Shown one piece after another: positions 1,849 through 55,968 of a stretch of DNA of 64,000 bases. The stretch lies in UHGV virus genome UHGV-0289908; one strand, given 5' to 3'. This DNA is from a virus. Each line of letters opens with the position of its first letter. The first letter of the stretch is position 1. The notes beneath the pieces are model-generated. The model was given only the letters and a program-made list of their open reading frames with translations, searched no databases and was not told the origin of the DNA. A program made the position numbers and the translations under genes.

Positions 1849-2367
1849 CTATTTGTTTTGTAGCTCTTCGATTGCATTGAGTAATAGGTCAATTTGTCGT
1901 TGTTGTTTACGAACAAACTTGCATAGCTCATCAATCTGTTTCTGTGTAGAAGTGTTCGACTCAGTGTCCAAAGAGCGACTAATGGTTTGCACATGTGTTA
2001 ATGCGTCACTCAGCTTTGACCCATCTTCCATAACAATACGACTGCTGTGAATCAACTTGTATCCACGACCATAGTAAGTTACTTCTACAATTTTTGCCCC
2101 TTGCGAATGATGAAAATAAACAACTCCCCCATTATAATCCACATGGTAAGAATCTTCCGTAAGTTTAGAACGGTGGTCTACTTCATGATAAAGTTTCCCC
2201 TCCATGTCAACCACTGACAGTCGATGAAAACTGTCTGGAATCTCATCTAATTGAATGTTAAAATAGACAGGAGATACTTGTTGAACCTCCTGTTTGTGGA
2301 TTGCGATAGGATTGCCATTGACATCTGTATTCCAATTCATTAAATATGGATTGATGTTTGTTAGCAT
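1849..2367 (-). CDS. Short paralogue of the N-terminal anchor domain of the 1312-aa tail-fibre protein, plus a coiled coil
   Basis: 172 aa. Residues 10-120 (NWNTDVNGNPIAIHKQ...VTYYGRGYKLIHSSRIVMEDG) align with residues 25-135 of the ORF at 11916..15854 (QWNRDENGNPISWHIP...VNYYGRGVILISDSRIFHRDG). RBS GGAAGTGA upstream. Confidence 0.6.
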   Translation of the reverse strand: MLTNINPYLMNWNTDVNGNPIAIHKQEVQQVSPVYFNIQLDEIPDSFHRLSVVDMEGKLYHEVDHRSKLTEDSYHVDYNGGVVYFHHSQGAKIVEVTYYGRGYKLIHSSRIVMEDGSKLSDALTHVQTISRSLDTESNTSTQKQIDELCKFVRKQQRQIDLLLNAIEELQNK

Positions 2368-2546: not shown

Positions 2547-2573
2547 CCTCCTTTTAATTTAAAACAAAGACCC

Positions 2574-2822
2574 TTATTGTTGGGTCTTTGCAAGATATTT
2601 ATTCATGACCTCGTCTGTCCAAACAGACTTTACAATATTCATGTAGTAGTCATCCAAAATTTCTTTTGCATAATCTAAGTATGCGGGATGAGGTTCTAAA
2701 CAACATCCCCAATTATCTTGACCAATTTCCATTCCATCTTTTAGATAGTGTGTGATGACGACCACATTAATGCGACCGTCATCTAATATTTCTAATTTTG
2801 TTTCTTTTTCCTCAGTAAACAT
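2574..2822 (-). CDS. Hypothetical protein (82 aa)
   Basis: ORF from the track. Its stop lies inside a hairpin (AAAGACCC..GGGTCTTT) followed by a T-rich run. No TM segment, so not a holin. Confidence 0.5.
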   Translation of the reverse strand: MFTEEKETKLEILDDGRINVVVITHYLKDGMEIGQDNWGCCLEPHPAYLDYAKEILDDYYMNIVKSVWTDEVMNKYLAKTQQ

Positions 2823-2844: not shown

Positions 2845-5800
2845 TTATCTCCATCTATAAATAGCACTAAAGTTTACGTCAACATTTCCTGTTCCCAAGT
2901 GCACACATTTTAACTGTTGCCAGCCAGAGTTACGAAGGGTGAAGTTTAGAACAATGTGACCTGCCCCACCTTCTACATATCCGTTAATTCCATAGGTTAA
3001 GCCATTCATTGCGTCAGTTACCCCTCCAAAGAATCCGATTGTTACAGGAGGGTAGTTCCATAAGCTCGATACAGGCAATCCCCCGATAGCAACCCCTCCA
3101 GAATGACCTCCTTTTGAAGCGATAACACGACCTTGAACAAAGACTAAATCTCCTAAATACACAGCTTGTCCTACTGCACTTGACGTTGTAAAGTTACCTG
3201 TGTCTGCATATAAGAACGGAGTAAAACTTTGTCGCCAATTATGAGGGACTGTTGCCCCATCATAAGATAGTCTGCTATCATCGTGCATGACAAGAAACTG
3301 ACCTCCTACCCCATTTTTCATAAATGAAGCATTTAAACTGTCATTGCGACCTATTTCTGTATATTGAGATAAATCGTCTCCTCGGGATATTCTTATGCGA
3401 CTTCGAGTACCTGCTGTGTCAATGCGAACATCTACGTCATTGGTTGAGTTAGGGTTGTGCAAATCAATATAACGACCGATTTCTATTGGAAGTGCATAAT
3501 TGGTTTGAAGAAATGAAGCTCCATACACTCCACCCTTACTTGTAATAGCACCTTGTGCAATGATTTCCCCATTGGCTCTAATATGTGTCCCTGCATTCAG
3601 TTCTCCTGTTGTAGACACTAGGTTGTCCATAATTACAGTTCTCAATGTATCTTTCGTATTGCACACCTTGATTTGGTGAGGTTCTACTGTTGCTACGCCT
3701 GTATTTACTTGGTACTCCCCGAGCTTTTCTAGTCTTATTCCTTCAATAGAAGTATGGATTCCTTGTGACCAACTATTGAGTGTTCCGTCATCGTAGCCAG
3801 ATTTTCCATGGAATCCATAACCATCTGCCCAATAGTATCCGTCCATTTTGGGATTATAGTCTGGAGAGGTGGCAAAGACAATATTTTTTGCATACAGCCC
3901 TTCCTTGTCCGCTCTAAATAGAGCGTCATTGGAAGCATTTAAAACAGAGATGTATCCATTACCGTTGGTGCTTCCTCCTGCAACAAAGTTAGTTCCTTTG
4001 AACGTACCAGAGGTAATTGTATCTGCCACGATTGTCCCAGTTGTAATCTTGCTACCATTAATTGTAGTTGACCCACCATTAATGATAGAAACAATACTAT
4101 TTGCACTTAAAACATCCGCATGTAACTTGTTGGCAGTGATTGAACCATCTACAATTAACTCTCCACCTGCCATACGAGTAACTTGAATATTACGAACCTT
4201 TAGTGTTCCACTAAAAGGTGTCCATCCCTCACATTGAATGAACACTCTAAATTTACGAGAAGCGGCAGGTAAGATTACAGAAGATGATACAGTCTTCGTC
4301 TCATTTGTTACCCTATCACTGTATAGATAATGTATAGCCTTGCCAGTGCCATCATAGGCAACAATTCCAATGGCTACCCCACGGTAAGATGAGTCAGTTC
4401 CTCCGTCGGTTGAAGCTCCCATCATAGTGGTTGAGATGTCTCCTTTTAATCTGAACGCTTCTCCACCATTGCAAGTGTAGTAGTCTGAAATATAGCTGTT
4501 TCTGGTGAGAGTACCTTTAACAAACCATTTTCCATCTGCTTCGGCTGACCCCGGTGTAAAACCATATTTTGTAGCGGTATTATCATTTAACTGTGCGTAG
4601 TTGGTGAAGTCTCCAATAGCCAACCTATCGGCAGTAATGCTTTTGGCTTTGATATATTCTCCGTTAATCCAAACCTTACCACCATCTAAGAAGATACCTT
4701 GTGTAGCCCCATTATTAGTTAACTTATTGAAGATATCTGCCTGTGTCTGACCGTTTACCTTGTCTTGAGCAATATTCCCTGCTTCCGTTGAAGTGGTATA
4801 GTCCATTGCTTTGCCCCAGTCGCTTGCTGTGTAGCTTCCCGAAGCTCTGGCAGTTTTACAGATTTTTAAATCTCCCGTACCAGAAAGATTTGTTACCCAT
4901 AAGTCTCCTACCTCATATGGAGTGGTAGGTGTTGAAGTAAACACACGCTTTTTAGACGTTGCTAAGTTTTTAGCATTCTCTGCGTCTGCGTCTGTCAATT
5001 TGACCCAACCCGTTCCAGAATAACGATACGTAACCTTGGTTGATGTATTGTACCAGATGTCTCCAGTATGAGCCGTTTTTAGCTCTGTGGTCGTCCAAGC
5101 AGTTGCAGGGTCGCTAGATTGTGCCCATGTTTCCACTTTTCCATCTACTTGCGTTTGTAGTCCATCAAGTGCGGTGTCAACTTCTTTTTTCAAGTCATTT
5201 GTCAATTTATCCGCATGTTCCTTAGTCTTTGTTGCCACAGAATCCAATATTGCTTGACGCTGTGTATAGTATGCGTTAAATTTAGCATTGAACTCCGAAG
5301 GAGTAATTGTGACGGTTGTTGAGCTTGATAGATTCAATGTTCCCACATATGTTTCTAACGCATTGTACGCACTGATAAAGTTTGTGGTTGAAATACTATA
5401 AACATTTGCTTGATTAATAATTGATGATTTCTCTAGTTTGATTTCTTCCCAGTCACGTAAAACTTGCTGTTTCTCAGAAGCAGTTAACTTACTATCACTT
5501 GCGATTTCATTTAGCTTTGTTGTTGCATTCTGTGCTTCGGTCTTCGCACTGTTCGCAGTGCTTTGAGCCGACTCTGCTACATTCTTTGCACTTTCCACAT
5601 CTGCCATTACATCCTCTGGAGCAGGCGACCAACCAGTCACTCTGTTCCCCTTGACAATAATCATTTCAGATACTGTAATAGAACCAACAAAGTTGTCCAT
5701 TCTAATTTGAAGTCCTGTAAACCCTTTTGTTTCATCGGTTGGGATGGTGACAGTATGGGTAATAGTTCCACCAGTATTTGAAGCAACATTGATGGTAGGA

Positions 5801-8800
5801 GACATAGCCAACCATTGTCCTGCTGTTTCACCCAGTGAGCCTTGAATCGTTCCATTTGTTTGTATTTTGAAAGTTCCTGTTGCTCCTTGGCTTACGCTAA
5901 AAGTAAATCCTGTTGTGACCTCTTCTCCTGCCAATCCTGCATAATGAGCACTTTTATTTACAAACTCGTAAATGCTTGTACATTGGCTTGTCGAGTTAGT
6001 CCCAGTGACGCTTACCTTGTTTGCTGTTCTCGCAAGCAAGTTTCGAGTCCCCACTTCTAGGTCTGCAACATCATATAACTTAGAAACGGTGAGGGTGTCA
6101 CTTACTCCACTAGCGTTTGTATTTAGTTTGAACGTGATTGATGTAATTGAGTCTGTAAATAATGAACTTGTCTTGCTTACCGTTAATACTCCATTACTAA
6201 TAGCCAATCCGTTCTGACCACTGACAACATTCACCCAAGTAGGAGTTCCACTTGATGAATAATTTGTACAATACTGCCAACTAGAATATGAACAGTTTTG
6301 TAATTGAGGTGTTAAAGTAATATTGTCTGGAAAGAATGTGATACCTCCATCTGTTGACTTGAATACTTGACTAGAAGCTAAAATATCTGCTATCTTAGCA
6401 TTTTGTCCTTTACGAGCCTTAGACCAAGAGAATATTTTGTTAAAAGTTTTTCCATCGACAATAACAGGGATGGTAACTGACCCATTTTCTGCTAATGAGC
6501 TACCTGTATTAGCTTGGAATGTTAATTTAGTTCCAGACTTAGTAATTGTCATACCAGAAGGATTTATAATTGTTCCAAAGGTAGGAGTTACAGATGTTGC
6601 TCCTTTGTAAGCAATGACATCACTTGTTGTCGAAACCGCAGTAGCAATACTTCCATCGTTTTCAGTCTGGAATGTATGTGTTTCATTGGTTAAGATAACG
6701 GTGTATGCGTCATCTCCATCTACTCCATCCGTTCCATCTTCCCCCACATATTTTTTCCATGTATAATCACCAAAAGTATTACTATCTGCTTCGGTGAAAT
6801 CAACATATGTTCCGATGTAAGTACCTACTGTTTCTCCATTGTTTGCAGTAAACGTCTTTCCATCATTTGAGTATTTGATGTGAAGATATGAAGTTCTACC
6901 ATCACTACCTTGAGCACCTTGAATACCACGCTCTCCATCTTCTCCCTTAATTTTACTCCAAGTGTATGAAGTGTTTGAAGAAGGAGCTGTTTGAGAGGTT
7001 GTTGAAGCTACCCCCATGTACTCTGTTGTGTCTGTCGGTGTGGTAGTCATTGGGTTACCGTTGGCATTTGCAGAATATCTTACATGGAAGTATGTCGTTA
7101 ATCCATCTTCCCCTTTGACACCTTGAATACCTTGAGCACCTTGAGCCCCAGTGTCTCCCTTCTGTCCTGTGATACATACAGGGTTGGTTGTCGTTGTTTT
7201 TTCATTAGAGTATTTTGTAACAGTGCGACTCCAGATATATTTTCCACTTTCCCAAGTTGGAGAAGTAGTTGTCCATCCACTTGTTGGAGCAGTTGTTGCA
7301 GAACTTGATTTGGCATATTCTACGTCAACAGATGTGATTGATACTCCGTCACTACCATCTGCCCCATCGTTTCCGTCTACTCCGTCATGCCCGTCTCTAC
7401 CTGTGACACATACTGGCGATGTTGTAGTCGTGTTATTGTTTGTATACGTAATAACAGAGCGTGTCCACACATACTTTCCAGACTCTGGTGTTGGGGCAGT
7501 ATCGCTCCATGACCCACCTGTTAAAGTAGTCTGAGAAGTTGAATGGTAGTATTGTTCCTTGATAGAAGATACTCCGACACCTTGTTCTCCCGAAGCTCCG
7601 TCTGAAACTTTTACAACTGTTAACTCATCATATTTGTTTCCAACTGTACAACGAATTGTAACAGATTTTACAGAGCTTGAGTTGAAGATTGTTGAGTTGT
7701 CATGTGGAAGCGTATAATAACTTTGGTTTCCATTTGTTGCGGAAGTGATTGTTGACCAAGCATCCTCTCCTGCACGTCTAAATTCCCAAACATACTTAGG
7801 GCTTGAGAATCCTTGAACCTGTGCTTGAATTTTAATTGAAGACGGAGTAGGTGCTCCTGTAAAGTTGTTAGTATACTTGAATACTTGTTCTCCACTTAGT
7901 GTCACTACCTCTGCATTTGTTCCGCTTTCACCTTGTTTTGAACAAGCCCAACTAAATACTTTGTTAAAAGTTTTTCCATCAATAGTAATTGGAATGATAA
8001 AAGTCCCATCGTCTGCTGTTAAGACTGTTGACTGAGAAACAGCAAAGGTAATGATGTTCCCAGATTTTGAAACGGCAATACCACTAGCACTATTGATTGT
8101 TCCGATTGTAAAGTCGGTACGAGTTGTGCGACCTTGGTACACAGACACCTCAGTTGTATATGTCTTTGATGACATAGGGAGTCTATCATTGAATGTTGGA
8201 ATAACTTGAGCTTCATTTGATAAGAAAACCGAATATGCGTTCTCTAGGTCTTCGATTGCGGGAGTCCAGTCTGTAGCCTTAGTTCCTCGTTCAAGTTTAA
8301 TCATACTAAATCGAATCGAACCTGCGTCTGCCACCGCCATTGAAACCTTGCAGTTATTTGGGTTGATGTCACTTGTCGTTAGCTTGCTTGTTGCTTCGAC
8401 TTTAAACCATTGTCCCACTGGAGAACTTTTTGGAATGTTGTTAACACAGATGTCAGAGAATGTGCTTCCATCTGTATGATAGCAACGTAGATATAATTGG
8501 TTATTATCTTGGTTTAAAGCGACATCCGAGTCAATGTAAATCCATCCAGATAATGTGTATGTGTCTCCTTGTTTAACAGAAGGTAAGACAACGTCCTTTT
8601 GAATTTGTTGACGTGCCGAATTTCCTGTTGTAGTTCTGCGTACACGGTAAGCCTTGTTATTCATATAACCGTCAACAACATTTGCCACAGAGAAACTTCC
8701 TAAGTTCCCTGTAGAGTCTGTTAATAAGTTTGTTCCTCCGATAACGACTCCTTCTACAACCGAGTTTGCATATTCTTTTGTTTTTGTTGCGATTGCGTCA

Positions 8801-10764
8801 AGGATGTTTTGACGTTGAGTATAATATGAATTAAAAGTGGAATTAAAAGTGTCCTTGTTAATATCTGTTGTAATACTAGATGATAGCGATAATCCACTAA
8901 TGTATGTATTTAAAGTGTTATATGCGTTCAGATAGTTTGTCGTTGAAACACCATAAACATTAGCCTGCTTAATGATAGAGTCTTTTTCGACCTTAATCTC
9001 TTCCCAGTCTCGTGAAACCTGTTGCTTTTCTAATGATGTTAATTTGCTGTCCGAAGCCATTTCGTTTAATTTTGCTTGAGCACTGTTGGCTTGAGCAAGA
9101 CCTTCTTGAGCATTCTTTTCCGCTTCTTCTGCCTTGTCAAGAATTTCCAACATGTCATCGTCATAGTCTTCGATAGCCTTTGTCCAGTCTGTAACCTTAG
9201 TTCCATCCTCTAACTGAGCCATAGTCATCCATACAGTAGAAGCTGACATTAGATGGAAGATGACCTGTCCAGAAACATTATTATCTCCTAGTTTAGATAC
9301 ATCAATGACATATCGTTCCCATGACGTTGTAATGTTCACAGTATTCTCATCTTGATATACCCCACCATATCCTAAACGAGCTCGTAACTTTACAGGTGAG
9401 CTTGCCTTTGCATAGAAGCTAAATAGTAGGTTGCGTCCTGCTCCTATTCCTTGAGCGTCTCCCAATACAGAAGTCCAGATAACATCTTGGTCACTTCCTG
9501 TATTGCTTGAAGAAGAGACCACCTTCAAAGTATTTTTATTCATGTATTTTGTACTTGTGTCGATAGAAACAGAGTGGATGTTTCCTCGTGTAGAAATAAG
9601 TGACTTCACCAAATCTTTGCTGAGGTCTGAATATTTTAAGAAGTTGCGTCCACCAACAACAACTCCATCTAAAGCACTGTCAGTATAGTCTTGTGATTGC
9701 TTCTTTGCTTCCTCTGCAACCTTGTTTAAGATTAACTGACGCTCTGTATAGTAATCGTTGAATTTTGCATTAAAAGTTACTGGAGCAATATTTGTATTAG
9801 TCGCAACATCTAAACCTAATGTTTCCACGTATGTGCTTAAAGCATTGTATACTGTATCATAATTAGCTGTACTAATGTTGTATGTCTGAGCCTGTTTATT
9901 GACAGATGGTTTTTCAACTTTAATCTCTTCCCATGTGCGAGAGATTTGTTGTTTCTCAGTAGGAGTCAAAATGTTGTCAGAAGCCATGTCGCTCAACTGC
10001 TTGTTGGCTTCACGTGCGTCTTCAATTCCTTGAAGAGCATTCTTTTCCGCTTCCTCTGCTTTCTCTCTTACGTTTTCAATTTCTTCTGTAATGTCTTCTG
10101 GAGATGGAGTCCAATCAGAAACCTTAGACCCTCTTTCTAATTGTAGGTTAGAAACCCATAACGTTGCACTTCCTTGTACAATTACACGGGCAGTTGCTTC
10201 TACTGTTCCTACTGGGATAGTTTGATTTTCTAATTTTAATTTAGTCCATTTTCCAACAGTTTTCTTGTCTCCATAAACCATGTAGCTCGTAACAAGACCA
10301 CCAAGAGCATTAAAGCATTGCAGTTCTAATGCAACGAAATCATACTCTTTCATTCCGTGTGTTGCAGGTAGGTAGATTTCTGCACTTGCAGAATAGCTTT
10401 CCCCAAACACTACTGGTTGAGGAGTTGGTGTTGCTCCAATTTTCATGGTTGAATCAGTGTTTGAGATTTTATATTTAATTGAGTTATTTGACCCATTTTT
10501 CATTCCTGTGTCAATGGCAGTGCCATCCACAAAAGTAAAATATGAATCTCCATATAGAGCAGTATTGCGTAAGATGTTGCGTCCTCCAATAGTTACTCCA
10601 TTTGTCTCCACCCAACTGCTTCCATTCCAAGTTTTTAACACTGGAGGTTCTACACTCGTGTCTAGCCAAACTTGGTCTGTCACTGGCGACGTGGGTGCAG
10701 TTGGGGAAGAAGTGATGTCATTGAAATCTTTGATAGTGATAAACCCACTTGATAAAATAGCCAT
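2845..10764 (-). CDS. Giant modular tail fibre / receptor-binding protein (2639 aa) with collagen-like Gly-X-Y tracts
   Basis: ORF from the track. N-terminus MAILSSGFITIKDFNDI is shared with the 352-aa ORF. Three tandem ~160-aa modules (residues ~215-375, ~517-680, ~1705-1850), each starting ..G.K..DW.P..ED. Gly-X-Y runs at residues ~1122-1140, 1199-1222, 1274-1290 and 1341-1352. Ig-like modules are shared with the 1312-aa ORF (FSWSKARKGQNAK / FTWNKTRKGQDAKS). Confidence 0.8.
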   Translation of the reverse strand: MAILSSGFITIKDFNDITSSPTAPTSPVTDQVWLDTSVEPPVLKTWNGSSWVETNGVTIGGRNILRNTALYGDSYFTFVDGTAIDTGMKNGSNNSIKYKISNTDSTMKIGATPTPQPVVFGESYSASAEIYLPATHGMKEYDFVALELQCFNALGGLVTSYMVYGDKKTVGKWTKLKLENQTIPVGTVEATARVIVQGSATLWVSNLQLERGSKVSDWTPSPEDITEEIENVREKAEEAEKNALQGIEDAREANKQLSDMASDNILTPTEKQQISRTWEEIKVEKPSVNKQAQTYNISTANYDTVYNALSTYVETLGLDVATNTNIAPVTFNAKFNDYYTERQLILNKVAEEAKKQSQDYTDSALDGVVVGGRNFLKYSDLSKDLVKSLISTRGNIHSVSIDTSTKYMNKNTLKVVSSSSNTGSDQDVIWTSVLGDAQGIGAGRNLLFSFYAKASSPVKLRARLGYGGVYQDENTVNITTSWERYVIDVSKLGDNNVSGQVIFHLMSASTVWMTMAQLEDGTKVTDWTKAIEDYDDDMLEILDKAEEAEKNAQEGLAQANSAQAKLNEMASDSKLTSLEKQQVSRDWEEIKVEKDSIIKQANVYGVSTTNYLNAYNTLNTYISGLSLSSSITTDINKDTFNSTFNSYYTQRQNILDAIATKTKEYANSVVEGVVIGGTNLLTDSTGNLGSFSVANVVDGYMNNKAYRVRRTTTGNSARQQIQKDVVLPSVKQGDTYTLSGWIYIDSDVALNQDNNQLYLRCYHTDGSTFSDICVNNIPKSSPVGQWFKVEATSKLTTSDINPNNCKVSMAVADAGSIRFSMIKLERGTKATDWTPAIEDLENAYSVFLSNEAQVIPTFNDRLPMSSKTYTTEVSVYQGRTTRTDFTIGTINSASGIAVSKSGNIITFAVSQSTVLTADDGTFIIPITIDGKTFNKVFSWACSKQGESGTNAEVVTLSGEQVFKYTNNFTGAPTPSSIKIQAQVQGFSSPKYVWEFRRAGEDAWSTITSATNGNQSYYTLPHDNSTIFNSSSVKSVTIRCTVGNKYDELTVVKVSDGASGEQGVGVSSIKEQYYHSTSQTTLTGGSWSDTAPTPESGKYVWTRSVITYTNNNTTTTSPVCVTGRDGHDGVDGNDGADGSDGVSITSVDVEYAKSSSATTAPTSGWTTTSPTWESGKYIWSRTVTKYSNEKTTTTNPVCITGQKGDTGAQGAQGIQGVKGEDGLTTYFHVRYSANANGNPMTTTPTDTTEYMGVASTTSQTAPSSNTSYTWSKIKGEDGERGIQGAQGSDGRTSYLHIKYSNDGKTFTANNGETVGTYIGTYVDFTEADSNTFGDYTWKKYVGEDGTDGVDGDDAYTVILTNETHTFQTENDGSIATAVSTTSDVIAYKGATSVTPTFGTIINPSGMTITKSGTKLTFQANTGSSLAENGSVTIPVIVDGKTFNKIFSWSKARKGQNAKIADILASSQVFKSTDGGITFFPDNITLTPQLQNCSYSSWQYCTNYSSSGTPTWVNVVSGQNGLAISNGVLTVSKTSSLFTDSITSITFKLNTNASGVSDTLTVSKLYDVADLEVGTRNLLARTANKVSVTGTNSTSQCTSIYEFVNKSAHYAGLAGEEVTTGFTFSVSQGATGTFKIQTNGTIQGSLGETAGQWLAMSPTINVASNTGGTITHTVTIPTDETKGFTGLQIRMDNFVGSITVSEMIIVKGNRVTGWSPAPEDVMADVESAKNVAESAQSTANSAKTEAQNATTKLNEIASDSKLTASEKQQVLRDWEEIKLEKSSIINQANVYSISTTNFISAYNALETYVGTLNLSSSTTVTITPSEFNAKFNAYYTQRQAILDSVATKTKEHADKLTNDLKKEVDTALDGLQTQVDGKVETWAQSSDPATAWTTTELKTAHTGDIWYNTSTKVTYRYSGTGWVKLTDADAENAKNLATSKKRVFTSTPTTPYEVGDLWVTNLSGTGDLKICKTARASGSYTASDWGKAMDYTTSTEAGNIAQDKVNGQTQADIFNKLTNNGATQGIFLDGGKVWINGEYIKAKSITADRLAIGDFTNYAQLNDNTATKYGFTPGSAEADGKWFVKGTLTRNSYISDYYTCNGGEAFRLKGDISTTMMGASTDGGTDSSYRGVAIGIVAYDGTGKAIHYLYSDRVTNETKTVSSSVILPAASRKFRVFIQCEGWTPFSGTLKVRNIQVTRMAGGELIVDGSITANKLHADVLSANSIVSIINGGSTTINGSKITTGTIVADTITSGTFKGTNFVAGGSTNGNGYISVLNASNDALFRADKEGLYAKNIVFATSPDYNPKMDGYYWADGYGFHGKSGYDDGTLNSWSQGIHTSIEGIRLEKLGEYQVNTGVATVEPHQIKVCNTKDTLRTVIMDNLVSTTGELNAGTHIRANGEIIAQGAITSKGGVYGASFLQTNYALPIEIGRYIDLHNPNSTNDVDVRIDTAGTRSRIRISRGDDLSQYTEIGRNDSLNASFMKNGVGGQFLVMHDDSRLSYDGATVPHNWRQSFTPFLYADTGNFTTSSAVGQAVYLGDLVFVQGRVIASKGGHSGGVAIGGLPVSSLWNYPPVTIGFFGGVTDAMNGLTYGINGYVEGGAGHIVLNFTLRNSGWQQLKCVHLGTGNVDVNFSAIYRWR

Positions 10765-10796: not shown

Positions 10797-10826
10797 AAAG
10801 CCGACCCACTACAGGTCGGTCTTTGT
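10797..10826 (-). terminator. Intrinsic terminator between the 352-aa tail gene and the giant fibre gene
   Basis: Minus-strand RNA reads AGACCGACC-tgtagtg-GGTCGGC followed by TTTTCTATT. Confidence 0.55.
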
Positions 10827-10842
10827 ATATAAAATTATTATT

Positions 10843-11901
10843 TTATTTGCTTGAAACATCCACTTTGAAAGTGGCTTTTACATCTACGTCATCTCCTGTG
10901 ATAGAGAATGTTTTTGTAGTCTTGCTCCATGAGCTTTCTAACACTCCATTTTGGTTATATTTGTACCAACGATAGTTGTAAGCTGTTCCTGCCGAATCAA
11001 TTTCTACCCCTGCTTGGAATAAGCGAGCGGTTAATATTGAACTTCCTACCCCATTCTTGAACACATCTCCACCACTTGATTCAACCACTACTTGGATAGG
11101 GTCGCTTTGGTCAGAGATAGTAATAACATCCCAGTAGTACTGATTATATGTTGCAGAAGCTGAGTCAGTATCCTTGATTGAAGCCTTGAATACCCCATAG
11201 CTTGCTACTGCGTTAGGGTAGATTGTGATAGTGTTGGTTGTACATCCCGTGTATAAACCAGAAGTGTCGGCTAACTTCTTCCATCCAATTCCTCCACCTT
11301 GGTCTGTTGAAACAGAAGCGTCCATCATGTACCATTGGTAGGCTACATTAGTTGTATCAATAGTACTCCCTCGCCATAATTCAATTTTTCCAATTAATGA
11401 CGAAACTTCGTTGTTTTTAAATACGCTACCGTTTGGTGTTGTTGCAATCGCATCTGTAATACCGCTACCATTGATTACACGTGATAATGTTACAGACATT
11501 TTGTGTGTTAAAGACAATCCAGTTGTTGAATCTAAGAACACTACATCACAGCGATAATCTTGAGCAGGGATTCCCGCAAGGACGTTCGCCTTGATTGTTA
11601 AGATATGATTCTTAGTTCCGCTTAACCCATATTGAGCATTAGCGGTGATTGCTGATGTAGAACTCCCAATATACCACTTTACAGATTGTACCTCACTGGA
11701 AGCAATTAGGTCTCCTGCATTCCCCGCCTTGAATAACGATGGTGTAAGAACCATGTTTTGTGATGCCCAGTTTGGATTATATGTGTCATTATCTGGGTTG
11801 TACATTTGTGTCTTTGCTAAATTTGTATTGATTATCCCCGTCAACGTGACAGCGTCATTATAATCAATAATGGAAATTTGTCCCGAGCTTAAGATTGCCA
11901 T
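10843..11901 (-). CDS. Tail protein (352 aa) sharing the MAILSSG N-terminus with the giant fibre
   Basis: ORF from the track. MAILSSGQISIIDYNDAV versus MAILSSGFITIKDFNDIT of the 2639-aa protein. Confidence 0.65.
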   Translation of the reverse strand: MAILSSGQISIIDYNDAVTLTGIINTNLAKTQMYNPDNDTYNPNWASQNMVLTPSLFKAGNAGDLIASSEVQSVKWYIGSSTSAITANAQYGLSGTKNHILTIKANVLAGIPAQDYRCDVVFLDSTTGLSLTHKMSVTLSRVINGSGITDAIATTPNGSVFKNNEVSSLIGKIELWRGSTIDTTNVAYQWYMMDASVSTDQGGGIGWKKLADTSGLYTGCTTNTITIYPNAVASYGVFKASIKDTDSASATYNQYYWDVITISDQSDPIQVVVESSGGDVFKNGVGSSILTARLFQAGVEIDSAGTAYNYRWYKYNQNGVLESSWSKTTKTFSITGDDVDVKATFKVDVSSK

Positions 11902-11915: not shown

Positions 11916-14900
11916 TTACGCTAATAGCGATTGTCCATTTTCATCTACAAAATCAACATTGAAAGTTGCTCTTGCTTTTACATCTGCCGATGTGATATCT
12001 ACCGACACACTTCCGATTGCGTGTTGATTATTCCACACTGTGTCTCCAACGTGGTCACTTGATATACGTGTCCAAATGAAGCGAGTTGGGTCAACCTCAT
12101 TTGTTATTTCTTTATCCCAATTATAAAGCCTTACTGATAAGGTGGTGTTGATTGCTCCGTTTTTGAAAATAACTCCATTGCTCGAATGAATTTCAATTCG
12201 ATACATGTTTTTACTTTCTATTTGCTCAATTAGGTCATCAACTTCATTCTTGTTGTATACTTCATCCTTCGTTGGAATATTGGTTGAGTTACCTCCATCT
12301 CCTACTAAGTAGAAGGTGGCTGCTCTGACATGAACATTTCCTTCTGAGTCAATCTTGAAGGTTTCTGTTCCATCGTTGCGGATTGCTTTTAAGTTTCTTG
12401 TGTTAACATATTCCCCATTGATATACACTTTTCCGTCTTGTAAATATATACCCTGTGTTTCGCCATTATTTGTTAACTTGTTAAAAATATCTTCTTGGTT
12501 AAGAGCTTCGACCGCCCCTTGTGCCAAGTTTAGGGCAATATCTGCATTAGCCTGTTGAGCCACTTCGCTATAAACTTTTAAAGTTGCCCCATATGCAGAA
12601 ATTAAAGCATTAATCTCTTCTAACTCGGCTTCTGTCATAATCATGTCTGCGATGGCAGAGCTAATTTTATGAACAAGTTGGTCGTGAGCCGTATCCAATT
12701 CACTCTTAGCCTTTGATAGATTTGTACGAGAAGTTGCTCCCAATTTCGGATGTTCAATAAGCCCTTTGTATTGTCCATCAATATCTAACTTTTCTGTTTC
12801 TAATTGGGTTAGTTTGCTTCTTAAGTTTGTTAAGTTAATCGTTCCGATTAACCCAGACTTAAAATCCCCATTCATGGTTTCTTCCAAGCTGTCTAACGCA
12901 TTAGAAACTTGGTCTACCTCTTTACGAATTTCTTCTTTTGCTTCGTTGACAATAATGCCCGCCTGTGTCTCGGAAATAGATGTCAGTGCGTCACTCATGG
13001 CTTGATATAGAATTGATGATAGTTCATTAAACTCACTCAATGCAGAATGAAATGCTTCGAGGTCTTCTGGGACAATATGCTCAGATAGCATTAATAGCGA
13101 GAACATCTCAGACAACTCTTCAAATTTTAAACTGTATGACTCATATGCTGTTAATAAGGCGACAAGTATTGCTTCATTTGTCAGATAATGGTTGTTAACT
13201 ATGCTTATGTATTGAGCATTGACATCGTTAACCTCTCGTGTCAAACCATCAAACATGGCTGTTATTTTGGCTCGTTCAACTTCATCTAAGATACCGTCTT
13301 TTAATGCGTTATTTACATAAGAGTCTAATTCGTTGACCTGCCCAACAACATCTGTTATTTCTGCACGAACTTCTTCTTTTGCTTGGTTGGTTGACTGCTC
13401 TATTTTATTAACCACATCATCTACTGTTGGTACGTCTACTCCTTCAATAGATAATTGATTTACCTTTAGCGTAAATTGGTCTCCATCATAGTATAACCCT
13501 GCTGAGTTTTTCTCAAATGGATTACCGACCATTAAAGTCCCATCTGTATCTAGCAAGAAAGTGGTCTTATTATTTTGATACCCTGCGACCCCTATGGTTG
13601 TTCCATCGTTTAAAACGTCCTTACCGATTGCGACCCCTGTGATTAAATCGTTTTCTTGGTCATAACTCCCTGCGAATAGCTTAGGGGTTAAAATGAGATT
13701 TCCACGAACATCTGTTTTGGTATCGTTCCATTCTTGTACCCAATCAAGACCATCTGCGTCTTTTGTGACTGAAATCGGAATGGTTTGAATAATCATATAC
13801 CCCTTATATGTGACTGTTAATTGAATATCATTATTCAAAATAGATTCATCAAAAATACTGGCTACAGTTGGGGTGAATGTCTTTTTAGTAGAAGAGCCTT
13901 GAATGTGCCCATTTGCTACCCAGTAGTATGAGACATCGTCCATTACCTCTGTTCCATTTTCATATAGAGTTCCTATGAAAGTGGCACTTGCAGACGGTCT
14001 TGGGTCTCGATTGATTTGACTAAAAGTAAAACTTCTTGTCCCCTCTGTAATGTTTAAGATATAAGATTTTCCATCTGCTCCAGTTACTCCATCACTACCT
14101 TGCTTGGCTTTTGAAATAGTCCATGTTTTTGTGATGGTTATTCCTTCCACTGTAACATTAATATTTGCGATAGCGGTTGAGAAAGAATTATCCATAGACA
14201 GTAGCCTTACGGTATTGTTTGAGAAGGCAATATCACAACCCTCACACTGTCCCTTCGATAAAACTGGAGTGACCTCTTGATTTCCCTTGAAGACCATTAC
14301 ATTGGTTGTCGCCTTTGCAATTTCTGATTCATGAACATATCCGCTGTTGTCGATTGCAACAGTGTGACTTTCGTTGGTTAATACAACGGTAATTGCATCG
14401 TTTCCGTTTGACCCTGCTGCTAATTTGACAAGGGTGATTTCATCCTCATACCCTTCAAGTTCGCATTTAATAGTCACTTCTTTGCGACTTCCCCAGATAT
14501 TGACATCATTGTGTTGGAATGTTAGCTCTGTCCCGTTTTTACCCTCTAGTAAAGTCCATGTTGAGCCATTTTGAACATACCATTTAGGACTACCAGACAA
14601 CCCCACTGCCTTTGCGGAGATTGTTGAACGACTTGGTGATGGAATATCACTGTAGTCACTTGTTTCATATCGGAGAATTTGTCCTCCGACCAATGTTAAA
14701 GATTTAGCGTCCTGTCCTTTGCGGGTTTTATTCCATGTAAACGATTTATTGTAAGCCGAGCCATCAATGGTAACTACAACTAAGCAGCTACCAGATGACG
14801 GAAGAGAAGTTCCTTTTGCACTTGTAAATGTTACTCCTGTTGCTCCCACTTTATAGCGTAATCCTTGTGGAGCACCTTGAACTGATAGAGAGTAGTTAGT

Positions 14901-36002: not shown

Positions 36003-37556
36003 CTACCCTCTTTCGTTTCCGTCATTTTCACGGGTTGATTCTCCCGTAGCTGACAAGTCTTCGTCTGCTACCTCTGGTCTTCCATCTTTGTCGTCTGTTA
36101 CCTCTCCATCTCCACTTTGAGTGTATGATGAGTTTAATGGAATCCAGTTGTTGTGTAATTCTAGGATATCGTTTTCTAAGAATGTTAATCCACTAATCTC
36201 TAATGGACTGCTTTGCCCAACGACTGCCGCCATTTGCATTTTTGTTGGTAACCCTAAAGTTGCGGCACTGGTTAATTGAGAAATGACTTCCTCTTTGTTA
36301 TATCCTGTCACATCTAATAGTTTGATTTTAAACATTCCATTGAAGCGACGTTTGAATTTACGGTTTAACCAACGCTCTAATGAGCGGTTAAGTTGGAACA
36401 AGATTGCTTCGTCAGTCTTGATAGAGTATTTTGTAGAAGTAGAGTTGTCTCCACCATTAAATAACATGTCTGTAACACCAATGGTATCATAGAAGTTTTG
36501 CACTGCGTCTTTAACTTTATTCTTGTTATTGTTCGCATCACGGAAACTGATATCTTTTACTGGTAATGGAGTAACAAATGTTCCAATGCTCTCATCAATA
36601 GATTGACGAGCCATGTTGTAGAATTGTAAAGCGGTTGACGCTTTAACTTCAAAGTTGTCTGGCTTCTCTGATTTTCCACTCATACGAGGGATTTCAAATG
36701 CTAATAAGCGATAGTTATTTTGTTCCGTGCTTACTTTCTCCAAGTTTTTATAGTCTTGGATATCAACGACATCTAAAGCCGCTGAAACATAGTAAGGGTA
36801 ACAATAAGGTAAATCCTCTTGTAATTTAAAACAGATAGACTTGTCTGACGGAACTTCTTGCCATTGATACAATGAACTGTCAGACTTGTACTTTGTATAT
36901 CCACTGCGGAAGAATGATGGCACAATCGTTTCATACGTGTTTAATAAAGTTTCTTCGTCATCATCGTTGTCGAAGAATGAGAAGTCAAACTCAAAATTGT
37001 AGCAAGCATCCTCTACAGATGAAATACGACAATAGTCTGGGTTTAATTGTTTAATGTAATATGAACTGTTTTTCTCGTCTTCGTACTCAATTCCATAGAA
37101 AACATCTTCTCGGAAGCAAGTTCTCTTGACTTTAACAAATTCATGTGGTATACTTAACATATCGAGATAAGCAACTGCTTTATGATAGTTCTTAGCAATA
37201 TTCTCACGATTCGTTTCAAACTTATCTACTTGAGCAGGAACAATGATGGGGCAATCAATTCCGATACTCGGTAAATAGTTAACAATACGCTTATACATAA
37301 AGCTAGTGTTTTCCAAATAGCGAGATAGTTCTCGAAGTTGTTTTTCATAATCTTGAGGAGAAGACAGATACGAAGTGATTGCGTCTCGGTCATACTCTCC
37401 GACTTTGCTAATGATTGAGTCACTTACTCGTCGGTCGTGGCGAAGTCCAAGATTCATAGACTTCATTGCACGAGCAAATTCCATCATGAACAATTCTTGT
37501 TCGGCTTGTTCTTGAGCCTGTTCTTGAAGAATTTTCTCAGTCATATCAGTAGACAT
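36003..37556 (-). CDS. Portal protein (517 aa)
   Basis: Immediately downstream of the large terminase. Size and the acidic C-terminal tail (GDGEVTDDKDGRPEVADEDL) are typical of siphovirus portals. Confidence 0.65.
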   Translation of the reverse strand: MSTDMTEKILQEQAQEQAEQELFMMEFARAMKSMNLGLRHDRRVSDSIISKVGEYDRDAITSYLSSPQDYEKQLRELSRYLENTSFMYKRIVNYLPSIGIDCPIIVPAQVDKFETNRENIAKNYHKAVAYLDMLSIPHEFVKVKRTCFREDVFYGIEYEDEKNSSYYIKQLNPDYCRISSVEDACYNFEFDFSFFDNDDDEETLLNTYETIVPSFFRSGYTKYKSDSSLYQWQEVPSDKSICFKLQEDLPYCYPYYVSAALDVVDIQDYKNLEKVSTEQNNYRLLAFEIPRMSGKSEKPDNFEVKASTALQFYNMARQSIDESIGTFVTPLPVKDISFRDANNNKNKVKDAVQNFYDTIGVTDMLFNGGDNSTSTKYSIKTDEAILFQLNRSLERWLNRKFKRRFNGMFKIKLLDVTGYNKEEVISQLTSAATLGLPTKMQMAAVVGQSSPLEISGLTFLENDILELHNNWIPLNSSYTQSGDGEVTDDKDGRPEVADEDLSATGESTRENDGNERG

Positions 37557-37570: not shown

Positions 37571-40500
37571 TTATCTAATCTTAGGGCTAGAGAAGCAGTA
37601 TAGAGAAGCAATGTTAAAGTCTTCTTCCTCTTCTTTTGCCTTATTTTCGTGTGTCATAATATACCAAATCATATAGACAAGTGCCGAGTAACGGTCTTTG
37701 TCAATCGACTTGGAATTACGTTTTACCGTCAGCTTCCCTCCATTTAGCTGTTCAAGACTTAAGTTAGCTATCTCTTCGATAAGTAGCTCTGTCTGAACAT
37801 GAGGGAGCACTGTGCTCTTTAAGAAGTCTTGGTCTGAGTTGGCAACTACGTTCTGGTCTACTTTCTCAAGTAGCTGTAGCGTTCCATTCTCAACTAAGTT
37901 CATAAAGTTAACAATAATGTCAGTATTCAGACCTTGAGCCTGTAAAGCCCAAACACATTTTAATGCTTCTGCTTCGTCTGACTCATGTTCTGTATTGATT
38001 GTGTCGAACGCAATTAACTCTTCACCTGTTATCGGGTCAATGTGAAGTTTCATTATCTCGTCAAGTAGTCCTACGCCTAATCCGTTAATATCTATGACAA
38101 CGGTTACAGCTTTGTATAGCTTCTGTAGTCGCTTAACTGCAATGGCTTGCCCAGTGAAGTTTGTGCCGTTAGGCAGGTTGACAATGTTGACAATCTGAAT
38201 ATGATTAACCTTGTCTTTTTTATCTCGTTTAACCTTACCTACTACAATAGAGGTCTGGTTGTTGTTCGTCTTTGTAGAGCGAGCCACATCGACTCCAATA
38301 TAGTATTCGCTCTTCCCGTCAGACTTTAGCTCTGCCTTTGGAAGAGTTCGGATGTTGAATAGCTTATTTAAGTCGATGATACATGAGTCGGACGAGCCCA
38401 CCCAACGGGATTCGTAGTTAGTTGCGAAGAATGTCGGAGATAGTTTCTCCTTCTTGGCAAGTAACTGTGAACGTGTCTCTCCACGTCCATACTCGCAGGC
38501 AAGCTCCCAAGAGCTACCCAATACAATTTTACCTTTTAACTCTGCCATCTCTTTGACCATTGCTAAACAACGCTCATACTCAGTGTTCTTGAAGTATGCT
38601 GTTGTTAAGAAGTGGATTTGACCATTCATTTCACAAGGGTCTACTTGCGGATTGTAACCAATAGTACGACGAGGTACGTTGACGATTGGTTCAAGGGCAT
38701 CAGAGAAGACGAAGTCGTTAAGTAAGGCAGCCTCTTCCATCATCAAACGATGGCGACGCTTACCCTTACTTGACTGTGCATTGGCAAGAGTGCTGATAGT
38801 ACTTCCACTTGTGAAGTGAATCTCGGCATTATCTTTTGAGAATTGTGGCTTACCTACAATCTCCGCTCCGATAAGAGGGAAGAATCGCACAATCTCACTG
38901 TGTTTCTCTTCAACTAATCCTGCGGCTGCTTGCATGGTCTGAGCCGACATAGATAGGTTGATATTTGGATAGAGAATAGCTGTTACATAGAGTGCTAACA
39001 ACTCTGTAAATGTATTGTGACTAACTAATCCATTTGACACAAATGAATGAGTGTTGTCTAATGACAAGTCATACACATGAGCCTTAGAATCTTTAATGGT
39101 CTTAATCTTTGAATAGAAGTAATTTTCACACTGCAAAGATTTAAAATGCTCACAGTGTTTTGCTTCATGAAAGCGTTCATGATTTAACATTTGGTTTAAT
39201 TTTTTATAAGTGAATAAACCACCTTTGTTTGCCACTTGATATAGAGGATGACTTGATTTATTAACATTCTCCCCTATTGATTCATAGAACTCTCTAATCT
39301 TAGACTGCTGATTTGGAATAATGTCTTTTATGGTTCTTCCTTGATACTCTTTGCAGCGTTGTTCTAACAATTCTTGTTTTCTTTGACAAGAGAATCCTAT
39401 TTCATCTCTGAATTTTAGTATGTTACTTCCCGTGATGGTAATAATGTAAGATTTCGTTTGATACTGTTTGCTTATCTTTGTTCGTCTGTTTGAAATAATT
39501 CCCAAGTTCAACAATAGTGTTTGAACCTGTTTAGACATTTTTTCAGAAGCTGTGCAGAATGAAACAGCTCTGCTCTCCACTCCACCGTCTGTATCAAATA
39601 ATCCTTGCAAACATTTCACCACATATTTTTTCGGTGCTTCTAAAATAATGTTGGGGATAACCTTGGTAAAGGCATCTGACTGCGACAAACCAAGTTGTCT
39701 AAAGTATTCACGAACATATTTGCCGTTGACGACATAATCTATGCCTGTTTTACGCTGTTTAACCTCTACTCCTATGACATTGTTCATAAAAGAGTGGTAG
39801 CGTTCCACCATATCTTGGTCTTTTGATGTAAAGAGGATGATGTTATCTCTTGTCAAGCAGCCATCTCCTAAAAGATAGCCAATTATCAGAGCTAAGTCCT
39901 CAGTTAATTCCGTCGGAGTGTTGCATTTGTTTTTTTCAATTTTCCATTTAGAGTCTCCACCAAAAGAATTTAACCACGAGTGCATATCAAAAGTCAATTT
40001 GGTTCTGCTACCCCAAACATTATCTCCTCGGCTTGTGATTAAATAATCTCCGACATGTAAATCCTCTGTTCGTTTCCAGTCAATATTTCCATCTGTTGTC
40101 ATAACTAGCACGGGGTGGTTTAACGAAGGTTCAATTTCAATACCTTCCTCGGTATATATTTTCTTTGTGTCCTTATATCCACTATACACCCCTGCAATGA
40201 CATTCTCCATCTGTTTATGACGATTGCTCACTGTCATTTGTTTAGGAATTATGTATGTTTCAACATTATCATCTTGATAATTAAAGTACGACCCAATCTC
40301 TTTAACTCCCTCGTTTGTTAAAATTAATGTATCGCCAGATACACATTTTCCATATCCACGTGGGAATACCCCGTAGACAGAAGCGAAACGGACTAGAACA
40401 CGAATGAACACTCGTTGGTCTAAGTCGAGTCGGATACCCCCTGTCTCGGGCGTAATTAGGTCGAGAAAGAGGTCGGGGAAAAAGCGAGCCCACGAAATGA

Positions 40501-43969: not shown

Positions 43970-44046
43970 TGGGGTTTCCTGTTGGATTCGAACCAACGAT
44001 AGCTCGGTTATGAGCCGAGAGCTTTGACCGACTAAGCTAAGGAAAC
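43970..44046 (-). tRNA. tRNA-Met (anticodon CAT; could be an initiator, elongator or lysidine-Ile type), CCA encoded
   Basis: Hand-folded reverse complement: acceptor GTTTCCT/AGGAAAC, D stem GCTT/AAGC, anticodon stem CTCGG/CCGAG with loop CTCATAA, T arm GTTGG-TTCGAAT-CCAAC, then C-CCA. Confidence 0.75.
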
Positions 44047-45057: not shown

Positions 45058-45098
45058 ATGTATAACATCCCCTTTAAAATAAGTTTTTAAAATCGTTA

Positions 45099-45172: not shown

Positions 45173-45218
45173 ATTTGTGGGAGGAATCCCACAGACTTTT
45201 ACCTGCATTCTTCCATTT

Positions 45219-51645: not shown

Positions 51646-51662
51646 CTCTCTACTCCTTTGTC

Positions 51663-54128: not shown

Positions 54129-54142
54129 AAATGTACCCCTTT

Positions 54143-55960: not shown

Positions 55961-55968
55961 AACTCAAG

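Follow-up and report, generated by a model that had tools for sequence, protein, structure and literature searches.

A very long modular phage fibre, probably for host adhesion, with cassette exchange at domain borders and a tip accompanied by an 82-residue protein

Introduction

The virus genome UHGV-0289908 was analyzed over a stretch of 64,000 nucleotides (nt), termed the window hereafter, in which an open reading frame (ORF) of 2,639 amino acids (aa) with an ATG start occupies 2845..10764 on the minus strand. What does a protein of this size do for the phage, and in what manner does its gene change? The initial annotation, which reported the same ORF, regarded the product as a recombination-prone tail fibre built by tandem triplication of a ~160-aa unit plus collagen-like segments. 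We propose, with a probability of roughly 70%, that its product is a host-adhesion fibre (the fibre hereafter) of great length, probably trimeric and attached to the baseplate, which belongs to an uncultured siphovirus-like phage of ~130-155 kb.

Under this proposal, the fibre would be fixed to the tail tip by a 54-residue anchor, probably together with p352, the product of the adjacent upstream gene. A shaft comprising aa ~55-1885 would follow, with four jelly-rolls (a spacer of four helices, the first of which is predicted to be a heptad coiled coil, comes after three of these), two pairs of beta domains and four collagen linkers, and the distal part would consist of a linker module, a fifth jelly-roll resembling carbohydrate-binding modules (CBMs), a beta-rich stalk and an all-beta tip of ~210 residues (Table 1). 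The collagen repeats and the heptad helix suggest that the fibre trimerises, and three copies of five CBM-like domains may then provide multivalent, probably reversible binding to cell-wall polysaccharides, while the tip would give the specific contact. The host range would evolve by homologous recombination at conserved linkers, which would exchange either the shaft as a whole or single parts of the fibre (the collagen cassette, CBM slot 4, jelly-roll 5 or the tip). The tip would move with p82, the product of the next gene downstream.

The fibre gene in the tail module

The genes around the fibre are arranged in the order tape measure, DUF6558 protein, 1,138-aa protein, protein B, p352, fibre, p82, p55, p172 and p230, and this tail-module order is kept in metagenomic contigs of 94, 131.5 and 154 kb. 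The fibre was matched by tail, tail-fibre and host-specificity families of PHROG with E-values down to 1e-180, a tblastn search with the fibre matched tail-fibre or antireceptor genes in 685 phage records, and the structural model of its C-terminal part (aa 2032-2639) matched tail-fibre structures in BFVD with E-values down to 1e-12. Thus, gene order, PHROG families and BFVD matches agree with the initial assignment to a fibre or adhesion protein of the tail module. A megablast search of the fibre gene against 50,697 phage records gave no match, and phmmer queries against PDB sequences with p82, the complete fibre or the 1,138-aa protein yielded nothing significant.

A sheath gene was not seen. 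The portal shares 33-36% identity with its counterparts in large siphoviruses such as Tsamsa, vB_BcoS-136, Sundance and KKP_3916, and portal matches were also found in 22 Lactococcus phage records; on these grounds we regard the phage as probably siphovirus-like. The annotated nearest relatives of the neighbouring genes came from human faeces, and the source of the phage is most likely the human gut.

Replacement of modules between related phages

We compared the nucleotide sequence of the window with those of four related loci, namely L001 (a contig of 131.5 kb), L002 (154 kb), L003 and L004. In L001, the Dit gene, the gene at the Tal position and the genes of B, p172 and p230 are 96-99% identical to their counterparts in the window, and the 352-aa gene is 93% identical. 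Within the fibre gene, the parts encoding aa 1-54 and aa >= ~1890 are 95-100% identical, while the shaft (aa ~55-1885) is 69-75% identical or unalignable, has no collagen cassette and carries a different CBM 4. The breakpoints fall at nt ~10600-10620, where the anchor meets CBM 1, and at nt ~5075-5165, where helical unit 3 gives way to the 'mid' module; in the protein, these are aa ~50-56 and aa ~1865-1895, respectively. The reciprocal pattern was found in L003, in which the shaft is 94-99% identical, the tip 76-82%, p172 71% and p230 80%. L004 is 96-99% identical in the upstream genes, 71-79% in the downstream genes, 70-78% in the shaft and 94-98% in the mid module and jelly-roll 5; a part of its tip is 80% identical and the rest is unalignable. 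The anchor is 99-100% identical in both L001 and L004, with ~72% in the shaft beyond it. L002 is 72-88% identical in the flanks, 68-77% in the alignable portions of the shaft and 68-74% in the mid module and jelly-roll 5, and its tip is unalignable. Altogether, the mosaic of nucleotide identity and the breakpoints at module boundaries strongly support recombination in the fibre gene, as the initial annotation had suspected.

Smaller units appear to be exchanged as well. Among 17 close metagenome-derived relatives of the fibre (1,956-3,345 aa), the collagen cassette is either present, with 17-25 triplets and 3-beta modules, or absent (6 of the 17), leaving 5-7 triplets without such modules. CBM slot 4 is occupied by one of three alleles (151, 179 and 174 aa), which either cannot be aligned with one another or share no more than 28% identity; the relatives P0003 and P0004 are nearly equal in length and in their module identities to the fibre, yet they carry different slot-4 alleles. 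In P0002, jelly-roll 5 alone is diverged (64%) between flanks of 94-97% identity, as expected for an independent swap. The CBMs are bracketed by the conserved linkers ..DLE[IV]G[GT][RK]NL.. and ..TDW[ST]P.PED.., and jelly-roll 5 by WINGEYIKA.SITADRL.. and GELIVDGSITA.K..; it is plausible that these linkers serve as substrates for homologous exchange.

The repeated cassette and its age

Comparison of the fibre with itself confirmed the three ~160-aa copies reported in the initial annotation. The copies (~150-165 aa) lie at aa ~205-372, 514-676 and 1699-1868, or nt ~9650-10150, 8740-9220 and 5160-5670, and share 44-53% protein identity and ~68-70% DNA identity in pairwise comparisons (module 2 shares 49% with module 1 and 53% with module 3). 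Only the first two copies stand in tandem, spaced by 927 nt, and copy 3 lies 3.5 kb off. The motif YYT(E/Q)RQ.IL ends all three copies as had been claimed, but the supposed start motif G(S/T)K(V/A)(S/T)DWTP is the C-terminal end of a jelly-roll and occurs four times, at aa 212, 521, 827 and 1706 (GNRVTGWSP in the last). The DWTP motif belongs to the last strand of a ~150-aa domain that starts with [IV]G[GT][RT]N[ILF]L. The repeated unit is thus a cassette of a CBM4/BppA-like jelly-roll followed by a four-helix module; the initial annotation overlooked the jelly-rolls as a part of this cassette, and also the pair formed by the tip and the 82-aa gene.

The AlphaFold2 (AF2) model of helical module 1 has helices at aa 222-261, 268-294, 300-314 and 328-366 (40, 27, 15 and 39 aa), with block means of the predicted local distance difference test (pLDDT) of 71-97 that are lowest in the first helix. 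The heptad power of hydrophobic residues is 4.7-6.6 in helix 1 across the units (6.6 in unit 1) and 0.6-1.6 in helix 4. Thus, the unit cannot be regarded as a plain coiled coil, since four helices are predicted and heptad periodicity is confined to the first. Pfam Alanine_zipper (PF11839) scored 22.8 bits in helical module 3, slightly below its gathering score of 23.1, a near-threshold similarity of the first helix to the Lpp alanine zipper, and PDB Lpp chains matched weakly (E 0.01-0.2). No Pfam family was found for the helical unit when the module was scanned alone. A HMMER search of 1.84 billion cluster representatives retrieved the helical unit in 1,889 proteins at E <= 1e-3, of which 151 reach E <= 1e-30; proteins longer than 1,000 aa make up the majority of those listed, and the unit occurs up to 10-11 times in each. 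Three copies are therefore unremarkable. The whole cassette of CBM and helices was also found in distant large proteins.

The layout of the first 1,055 residues is common to all of the 17 relatives, and three helical units are present in 16 of them, the exception being P0017 (1,956 aa) with two. A given copy shares 74-79% identity with the unit at the same position in the relatives but only 44-53% with its paralogues, which rules out a tandem expansion in progress. The triplication is accordingly an old one that has become fixed in this family. An assembly artefact is rejected too, given copies that have diverged to 44-53% identity and a layout found again in metagenome-derived relatives from several independent samples (the four relatives whose contigs were looked up came from four different samples). 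As a side observation, two consecutive large genes (1,956 and 2,738 aa) occupy the fibre position at 10001-24108 of L002, which could represent a split, a frameshift or a second fibre.

Carbohydrate-binding folds along the fibre

Jelly-roll 3 scanned alone matched Pfam CBM_4_9 (PF02018) with 26.9 bits against a gathering score of 25.9 (E 7e-6), and individual scans of jelly-rolls 1, 2, 4 and 5 gave no Pfam match. The AF2 model of aa 1-368 (mean pLDDT 80) matched CBM16 in a Foldseek search of PDB (E 1e-7, template modelling (TM) score normalised to the target 0.73, root-mean-square deviation 3.3 Å), and CBM22, CBM4, CBM61 and CBM30 were matched as well. A profile of the jelly-roll region matched 1gui, the CBM4-2 of laminarinase 16A, with an E-value of 4.9e-5. 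Jelly-rolls 1 and 2 were aligned by self-BLAST (aa 163-250 against 469-559, 34% identity, E 3e-16), and jelly-rolls 1, 2 and 3 are interlinked in this manner; jelly-roll 4 has just the start and end motifs in common with them. The start and end motifs are VGGRNFL and GTKVTDWTK in jelly-roll 2, and IGGTNLL and GTKATDWTP in jelly-roll 3. The slot-4 position of relatives can be occupied by a domain resembling jelly-roll 3 at 28-29% identity. Thus, jelly-rolls 1-4 are predicted to be carbohydrate-binding modules of the BppA/CBM4 type, and a fifth CBM-like domain probably lies in the distal part.

The AF2 model of the distal part (aa 2032-2639) has a mean pLDDT of 77. Jelly-roll 5 is all-beta with a pLDDT above 90 (block means 83-96), and it was found at ~40% identity in proteins of 650 aa; the stalk, which opens with the widely conserved linker GELIVDGSITA.K, is poorly modelled as a monomer (40-78). 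The Foldseek matches of this model in PDB comprised CBM22, CBM4, CBM16, CBM6 and lectin-like domains of tailspikes, with E-values of 1e-4 to 1e-3. The mid module preceding jelly-roll 5 occurs many times in P0018 and P0019, proteins of 4,300-4,400 aa with Pfam Prophage_tail.

Collagen-like linkers and fibre length

Gly-X-Y runs of 7, 8, 6 and 4 triplets were read at nt 7339-7401, 7096-7167, 6892-6945 and 6709-6744, spaced by beta-rich modules of ~50-58 aa, in agreement with the four alternations originally described around 6700-7404. A run of at least four triplets arose in 148 of 2,000 protein shuffles, so that the 4-triplet run alone is not significant. The score for Pfam Collagen (PF01391) was 24.4 bits against a gathering score of 27.2. 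A tblastn search with the collagen region matched antireceptor or host-specificity genes in 447 phage records, 261 of which are streptococcal; the matched phages include Streptococcus phages Dp-1, Abc2, P9851 and Sfi11 and Lactobacillus phage J-1. The antireceptor of Dp-1 is 35% identical over 94% of the region (E 9e-27).

The rise of collagen is ~0.29 nm per residue, or ~0.86 nm per triplet, and the 0.3 nm per triplet adopted in the initial annotation is in fact the value for a residue. The 75 Gly-X-Y residues would then extend over about 21 nm. As the helical unit is predicted to fold back as four helices, its axial contribution would be far below 150 aa x 0.15 nm, at roughly 6-8 nm for each. 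The five jelly-rolls, four ~105-aa domains and four 3-beta modules would add roughly 45 nm if placed in line, and the anchor, mid module, stalk and tip roughly 20-25 nm. By this arithmetic, the modules sum to ~80-130 nm, and a fibre of ~100 nm is plausible.

The tip, p82 and p352

The tip is predicted by AF2 to be all-beta with a pLDDT of ~90 (block means 74-95). Unrelated scaffolds carry the last ~250 residues at their own C-terminus with 48-74% identity; these are PF05895/DUF859 proteins of ~720 aa, a BppU_N protein of 655 aa and mini-fibres of 783 and 942 aa. These mini-fibres also possess the anchor and the first CBM of the fibre at ~30% identity. A profile of the C-terminal region detected no relative in PDB.

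The p82 gene starts 22 nt past the stop codon of the fibre gene. A p82 homologue was found directly 3' of every gene ending with the tip, that is, at all eight loci (the window, L001, L003 and L005-L009, of which L009 is an IMG/VR locus found by searching with p82 itself), and was missing from L002 and L004, the two loci with other tips. The homologues are 55-100% identical, with E-values of at most 1e-31 for the loci compared by BLASTP, and conserve the motif NWGCC[LM]EP. No match to p82 was found in Pfam or PDB, one PHROG of unknown function was matched weakly (E 0.0046), and searches for p82 retrieved nothing from JGI metagenome contigs and one locus from IMG/VR. The C-terminal chaperone Peptidase_S74 (PF13884), carried by many distant relatives, was not matched in the fibre. 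From its gene position, its co-occurrence with the tip and a fibre devoid of Peptidase_S74, we infer that p82 may be a tip-specific assembly chaperone or an accessory adhesin acting in trans. The co-occurrence of the tip and p82 is newly described here. We give about even odds to a wider hypothesis, in which the tip (~210-250 residues) and p82 constitute a mobile two-gene receptor-binding cassette residing on at least four unrelated scaffolds, with p82 representing a new family of chaperones or adhesins for the fibres of Gram-positive phages, and in which, separately, the four-helix unit may be a standard spacer that sets the length between CBMs. Next to p82, p55 resembles coiled-coil families of Pfam (ZapB, intermediate filament) only below their thresholds and, unlike p82, is kept where the tip differs, with 89% identity in L004 and 43% in L002.

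At the opposite end, the anchor (pLDDT ~80 over aa 21-50) is shared with the short fibres P0092, P0093 and P0074 at ~30% identity. The N-terminus of p352, LSSGQISIIDYND, resembles that of the fibre, ILSSGFITIKDFND, as read directly from the two sequences. On the unrelated 47-kb contig L005, genes for Dit (Sipho_tail), Tal (Prophage_tail) and a 355-aa protein are followed by a mini-fibre, and the 355-aa protein is 64% identical to p352. As the same pair is found in L005, p352 and the anchored fibre are a conserved unit. Separately, p352 and its counterpart in L002 are 96% identical in protein and 88% in nucleotide sequence amid L002 genes of just ~72-75% nucleotide identity, and p352 is accordingly either unusually constrained or itself exchanged.

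Beta domains common to the fibre and protein B

Two families of ~105-aa domains (termed 'Ig1' and 'Ig2') are each represented twice in the fibre, paired at aa 839-1053 and again at aa 1349-1563, with 35-38% identity between the pairs. Domains of these families occur four times in B (aa 189-290, 291-394, 392-492 and 498-600) at 24-43% identity to those in the fibre; the fibre comprises two Ig1-Ig2 pairs, and B three Ig1 and one Ig2. A linker motif of 44-53 aa is also common to the two proteins (aa 1995-2047 of the fibre and 1121-1173 of B, 59-66% identity). The initial annotation spoke of an Ig-like module exchanged with its neighbour. The two families are indeed shared, but an exchange, at least a recent one, is too strong a claim because the identity is just 24-43%. 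Profiles of the two families gave non-significant PDB matches (a NEAT domain at E 0.017 and a JAM Ig domain at E 0.22), and scans of all alignment members yielded no consistent Pfam family. BNR/Asp-box matches in 6 of the 18 alignment members were set aside, as they reflect a short loop motif and do not assign a fold.

Further relationships were observed among the neighbouring proteins. YomF_N takes its name from a gene of the Bacillus SPbeta prophage, and p172 is a stand-alone paralogue of the N-terminal ~135 residues of B (39-46% identity), relatives of both carrying YomF_N, at the N-terminus in those of B. The C-terminal ~95 residues of B (11916-12300, minus strand) and p352 (10843-11130, minus strand) are related to one another (27% identity, E 5e-8), and both C-termini match PHROGs labelled tail fibre, minor tail protein and 'glycerophosphoryl diester phosphodiesterase'. 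As for its length, B has 1,326 aa when counted from a GTG start and 1,303 aa as called in relatives; the 1312-aa fibre of the initial annotation is the same protein counted from the first ATG.

Evaluation of alternative functions

Several points weigh against a multivalent adhesion fibre on the baseplate. A CBM fold alone is no proof of sugar binding, and the C-terminal model gave weak PDB matches (E about 1e-4), with the aligned domain unspecified in the output. The trimer is deduced from the collagen repeats and one heptad helix, and the Pfam matches to Collagen and Alanine_zipper are just sub-threshold. Both ~105-aa families and the tip are without a significant relative of known structure, and relatives of the tip were not found in 185,579 species-representative genomes when queried with a single sequence and then with an alignment. 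One alternative is a single central tail fibre below the tail-tip hub, a detached equivalent of the C-terminal extension of streptococcal Tal, which would aid cell-wall penetration instead of being one of several lateral fibres. The N-terminal model aligns with the central fibre gp20 of mycobacteriophage Douge over 323 columns (E 4e-6), the design of collagen, 3-beta and CBM modules is that of the Tal extensions, matched Enterococcus phage proteins are annotated as 'putative central tail fiber', and the 355-aa gene and the mini-fibre of L005 come directly after Tal. On the other hand, B and p352 intervene between the fibre and the gene at the Tal position, the downstream BppU_N protein and two proteins of >1,000 aa make several attachment sites possible, the fibre showed neither a gp27-like nor a Prophage_tail domain, and the TM score to the Douge chain is so low (0.18) that much of the match may be due to the CBM alone. 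A single central fibre is thus possible, albeit on the doubtful side. In another alternative, the receptor would be bound by the tip only and the jelly-roll, beta and helical modules would be pure spacers for length and stiffness, the replacement of the shaft being neutral or tuning the reach. The portability of the tip across many N-terminal scaffolds fits this idea, as do the mini-fibres P0092 and P0093, which have the same anchor and tip with just one jelly-roll. However, phage members of the CBM families found in the shaft bind host polysaccharides (BppA and the CBMs of Tal), three unrelated slot-4 alleles reside in otherwise similar fibres, and a 5.5-kb shaft allele has been replaced between phages that are 96-100% identical elsewhere. 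The slot-4 alleles and the shaft replacement are expected for a determinant of the host range and unusual for a neutral spacer, and we regard a binding role restricted to the tip as unlikely.

The notion that the distal part acts as an enzyme of the tailspike type, degrading capsule, teichoic acid or another surface polymer, could be drawn from the Foldseek matches of the C-terminal model, which include CBA120 TSP4, Dettilon and K2-2 TSP, and from the annotation of some matched Enterococcus phage genes as 'glycerophosphoryl diester phosphodiesterase'. Nevertheless, these structural matches span ~140-170 columns, the size of lectin-like C-terminal domains, and Pfam scans of the fibre, both entire and divided into ten modules, returned no catalytic domain. 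Moreover, the phosphodiesterase PHROG (phrog_2204) matches B and p352 but not the fibre, and the Enterococcus matches fall within residues ~192-1869 of the query, including the helical repeat units. We consider such an activity very unlikely. Least probable of all, to the point of being hardly credible, would be a role as a decoration or whisker on the head, neck or tail tube. Some weaker PHROG matches are labelled 'minor head protein' or 'virion structural protein' (phrog_1775 and phrog_30133), and CBM-bearing neck-passage structures are described in lactococcal 936 phages (PMC6669499). At every locus examined, however, the gene lies inside the distal tail module, after the genes for the tape measure and those at the Dit and Tal positions and before BppU_N, and the stronger matches belong to tail, tail-fibre and host-specificity families. 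An adhesion fibre at the tail tip, with both the shaft and the tip probably involved in binding, is the reading that we retain.

Gene neighbourhood in the window

The modules of the fibre and the neighbouring genes are listed in Table 1. Two further proteins of >1,000 aa are encoded downstream, besides the BppU_N protein. The 2,186-aa tape measure would correspond to a tail of ~330 nm at about 0.15 nm per residue, which fits the large siphoviruses distantly related by the portal. The ORF at the terminase position has 1,016 aa, and terminase PHROGs match parts of it beside helicase-like families and families of unknown function, which suggests an insertion (an intein or a fused domain) or an unusual terminase.

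Table 1. Modules of the fibre and neighbouring genes in the window
Feature	Fibre residues (aa)	Position (nt)	Strand	Basis or remark
N-terminal anchor, small beta domain	1-54	10603..10764	(-)	AF2 strands aa 17-53
CBM-like jelly-roll 1	55-212	10129..10602	(-)	Foldseek, profile
Helical module 1	213-365	9670..10128	(-)	AF2; repeat copy 1 of the initial annotation
CBM-like jelly-roll 2	366-521	9202..9669	(-)	Self-BLAST, motifs
Helical module 2	522-668	8761..9201	(-)	Repeat copy 2 of the initial annotation
CBM-like jelly-roll 3	669-838	8251..8760	(-)	Pfam; no helical module after it
Beta-domain pair a ('Ig1' and 'Ig2' families)	839-1053	7606..8250	(-)	
Collagen-like linkers alternating with ~55-aa beta modules	1054-1352	6709..7605	(-)	
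Beta-domain pair b	1353-1564	6073..6708	(-)	
CBM slot 4, swappable cassette	1565-1706	5647..6072	(-)	
Helical module 3	1707-1860	5185..5646	(-)	Repeat copy 3 of the initial annotation
'Mid' linker module	1861-2050	4615..5184	(-)	Includes linker motif aa 1995-2047
Distal jelly-roll 5	2051-2230	4075..4614	(-)	AF2
Distal beta-rich stalk	2231-2430	3475..4074	(-)	
C-terminal tip, candidate receptor-binding head	2431-2639	2848..3474	(-)	AF2
Large terminase-position ORF		37571-40621	(-)	Structural run
Portal		36003-37556	(-)	Structural run
Tape measure, 2,186 aa		20189-26749	(-)	
DUF6558 'phage tail protein', 261 aa		Dit position	(-)	
1,138-aa protein		Tal position	(-)	
Protein B, neighbour of the fibre, 1,326 aa		11916..15896	(-)	Domain families in common with the fibre
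p352, tail protein, 352 aa		10843..11901	(-)	Directly upstream of the fibre; phrog_3267 'tail protein', E 1e-104
p82, 82 aa		2574..2822	(-)	Directly downstream of the fibre
p55, 55 aa		2379-2546	(-)	Next after p82
p172, 172 aa, YomF_N		1849-2367	(-)	After p55
p230, 230 aa, BppU_N		After p172	(-)	

Elsewhere in the window, a 297-aa ORF at 50821-51714 (minus strand) matches homing-endonuclease PHROGs of the GIY-YIG type and adjoins a 917-aa ORF of unknown function, and a tRNA cluster (Met-CAT, Thr-GGT and Ser-GCT) is located at 43970-45310 (minus strand) among minus-strand genes. Gene orientation and the GC and AT skews change sign around ~54000-56000, with minus-strand genes up to ~54.1 kb and plus-strand genes after ~57 kb, and the GC content falls to 32-34% in the last 6 kb. 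A consensus scan found promoter-like sites in the window at the chance level. Terminator-like hairpins, recognized as consensus matches only, are located between the p352 gene and the fibre gene (10801-10819, minus strand) and over the last codons of p82 (2564-2591, minus strand). Antisense ORFs of 105-127 aa within the fibre gene were taken as likely spurious.

Comparison with known systems

The fibre belongs to a known family of adhesion fibres in phages of Gram-positive bacteria, which are modular, contain collagen and are decorated with CBMs. In S. thermophilus phages, the Tal extensions comprise a collagen-like linker plus a 3-beta domain, BppA-like CBMs and an Ig-like domain (PMC9437275, PMC7533335), and swapping the gene between the S. 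thermophilus phages DT1 and MD4 swaps the host specificity (Duplessis and Moineau 2001, as cited in PMC7533335). As in the extensions of phages DT1, TP-778L, SW13 and 9851 (Goulet et al. 2022, PMC9437275; Lavelle et al. 2020, PMC7533335), collagen linkers alternate with 3-beta modules of ~60 aa and CBMs are strung along the fibre; the collagen/3-beta regions show 27-37% sequence similarity, and the runs are short in both. In contrast to those extensions, the fibre is encoded by a separate gene with its own 54-aa anchor and has no gp27-like Tal N-terminus: neither Prophage_tail (PF06605) nor a gp27-like domain was matched in the fibre, while the distant relatives P0018 and P0019 carry PF06605. 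It further adds three cassettes of a CBM and four helices and a distal tip with an 82-aa partner gene, and its phage is of a ~130-155-kb lineage, while the dairy phages with Tal extensions are of 35-40 kb.

BppA of lactococcal phage Tuc2009 (PDB 5E7T) is an accessory protein of the baseplate that bears a CBM. Its jelly-roll and those of the fibre share a terminal strand motif, ..E.G..AT.W/Y.P...E, and the profile of the jelly-roll region matched chain 5e7t_B marginally (E 0.0035) with this motif inside the alignment. BppA has 286 aa and one CBM and forms a tripod with BppU and BppL, whereas the fibre has four such CBMs and is nearly ten times longer. The central fibre of mycobacteriophage Douge binds host glycans through its CBM-like N-terminal domain and its tip domains (PMC13033339). 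Its protein gp20 (PDB 8ZDP) resembles the fibre in having an N-terminal domain of a carbohydrate-binding fold, and the elongated trimer and glycan-binding tip known for gp20 are predicted for the fibre. The Douge protein is shorter (763-878 residues in the deposited entries), no collagen segments are mentioned in the available text, and its comparison with the N-terminal model of the fibre gave a TM score to the target of 0.18 and 14% sequence identity. Large fibres of Bacillus and Enterococcus phages (Shanette, CP-51, JL, the 'receptor binding protein' of BSG01 and the 'central tail fiber' of iF6) share the cassette of helical repeat and CBM at 25-34% identity over 24-42% of the fibre; none of them covers at least 80% of the query, and they lack the N-terminal 1,055-aa layout and the tip. 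Several of these phages have myovirus-type genomes of about 140-155 kb.

Giant modular fibres decide which bacteria a phage infects, and the loci compared here amount to a natural experiment, in which whole shafts, single CBMs or tips are replaced in surroundings of 96-100% nucleotide identity. The breakpoints at the domain borders may provide a map of the points at which fibres can be cut and re-joined to engineer the host range of gut phages, for which p82 probably must be moved along with the tip. A very common helical fibre module without a Pfam match, for which just weak, unannotated similarities were seen, is also flagged. The design of collagen linkers, 3-beta modules and CBMs has already been described in the Tal extensions of streptococcal phages; what the present locus adds to it is unusually clean comparative evidence for the exchange of cassettes at domain borders, together with the pair of the tip and p82.

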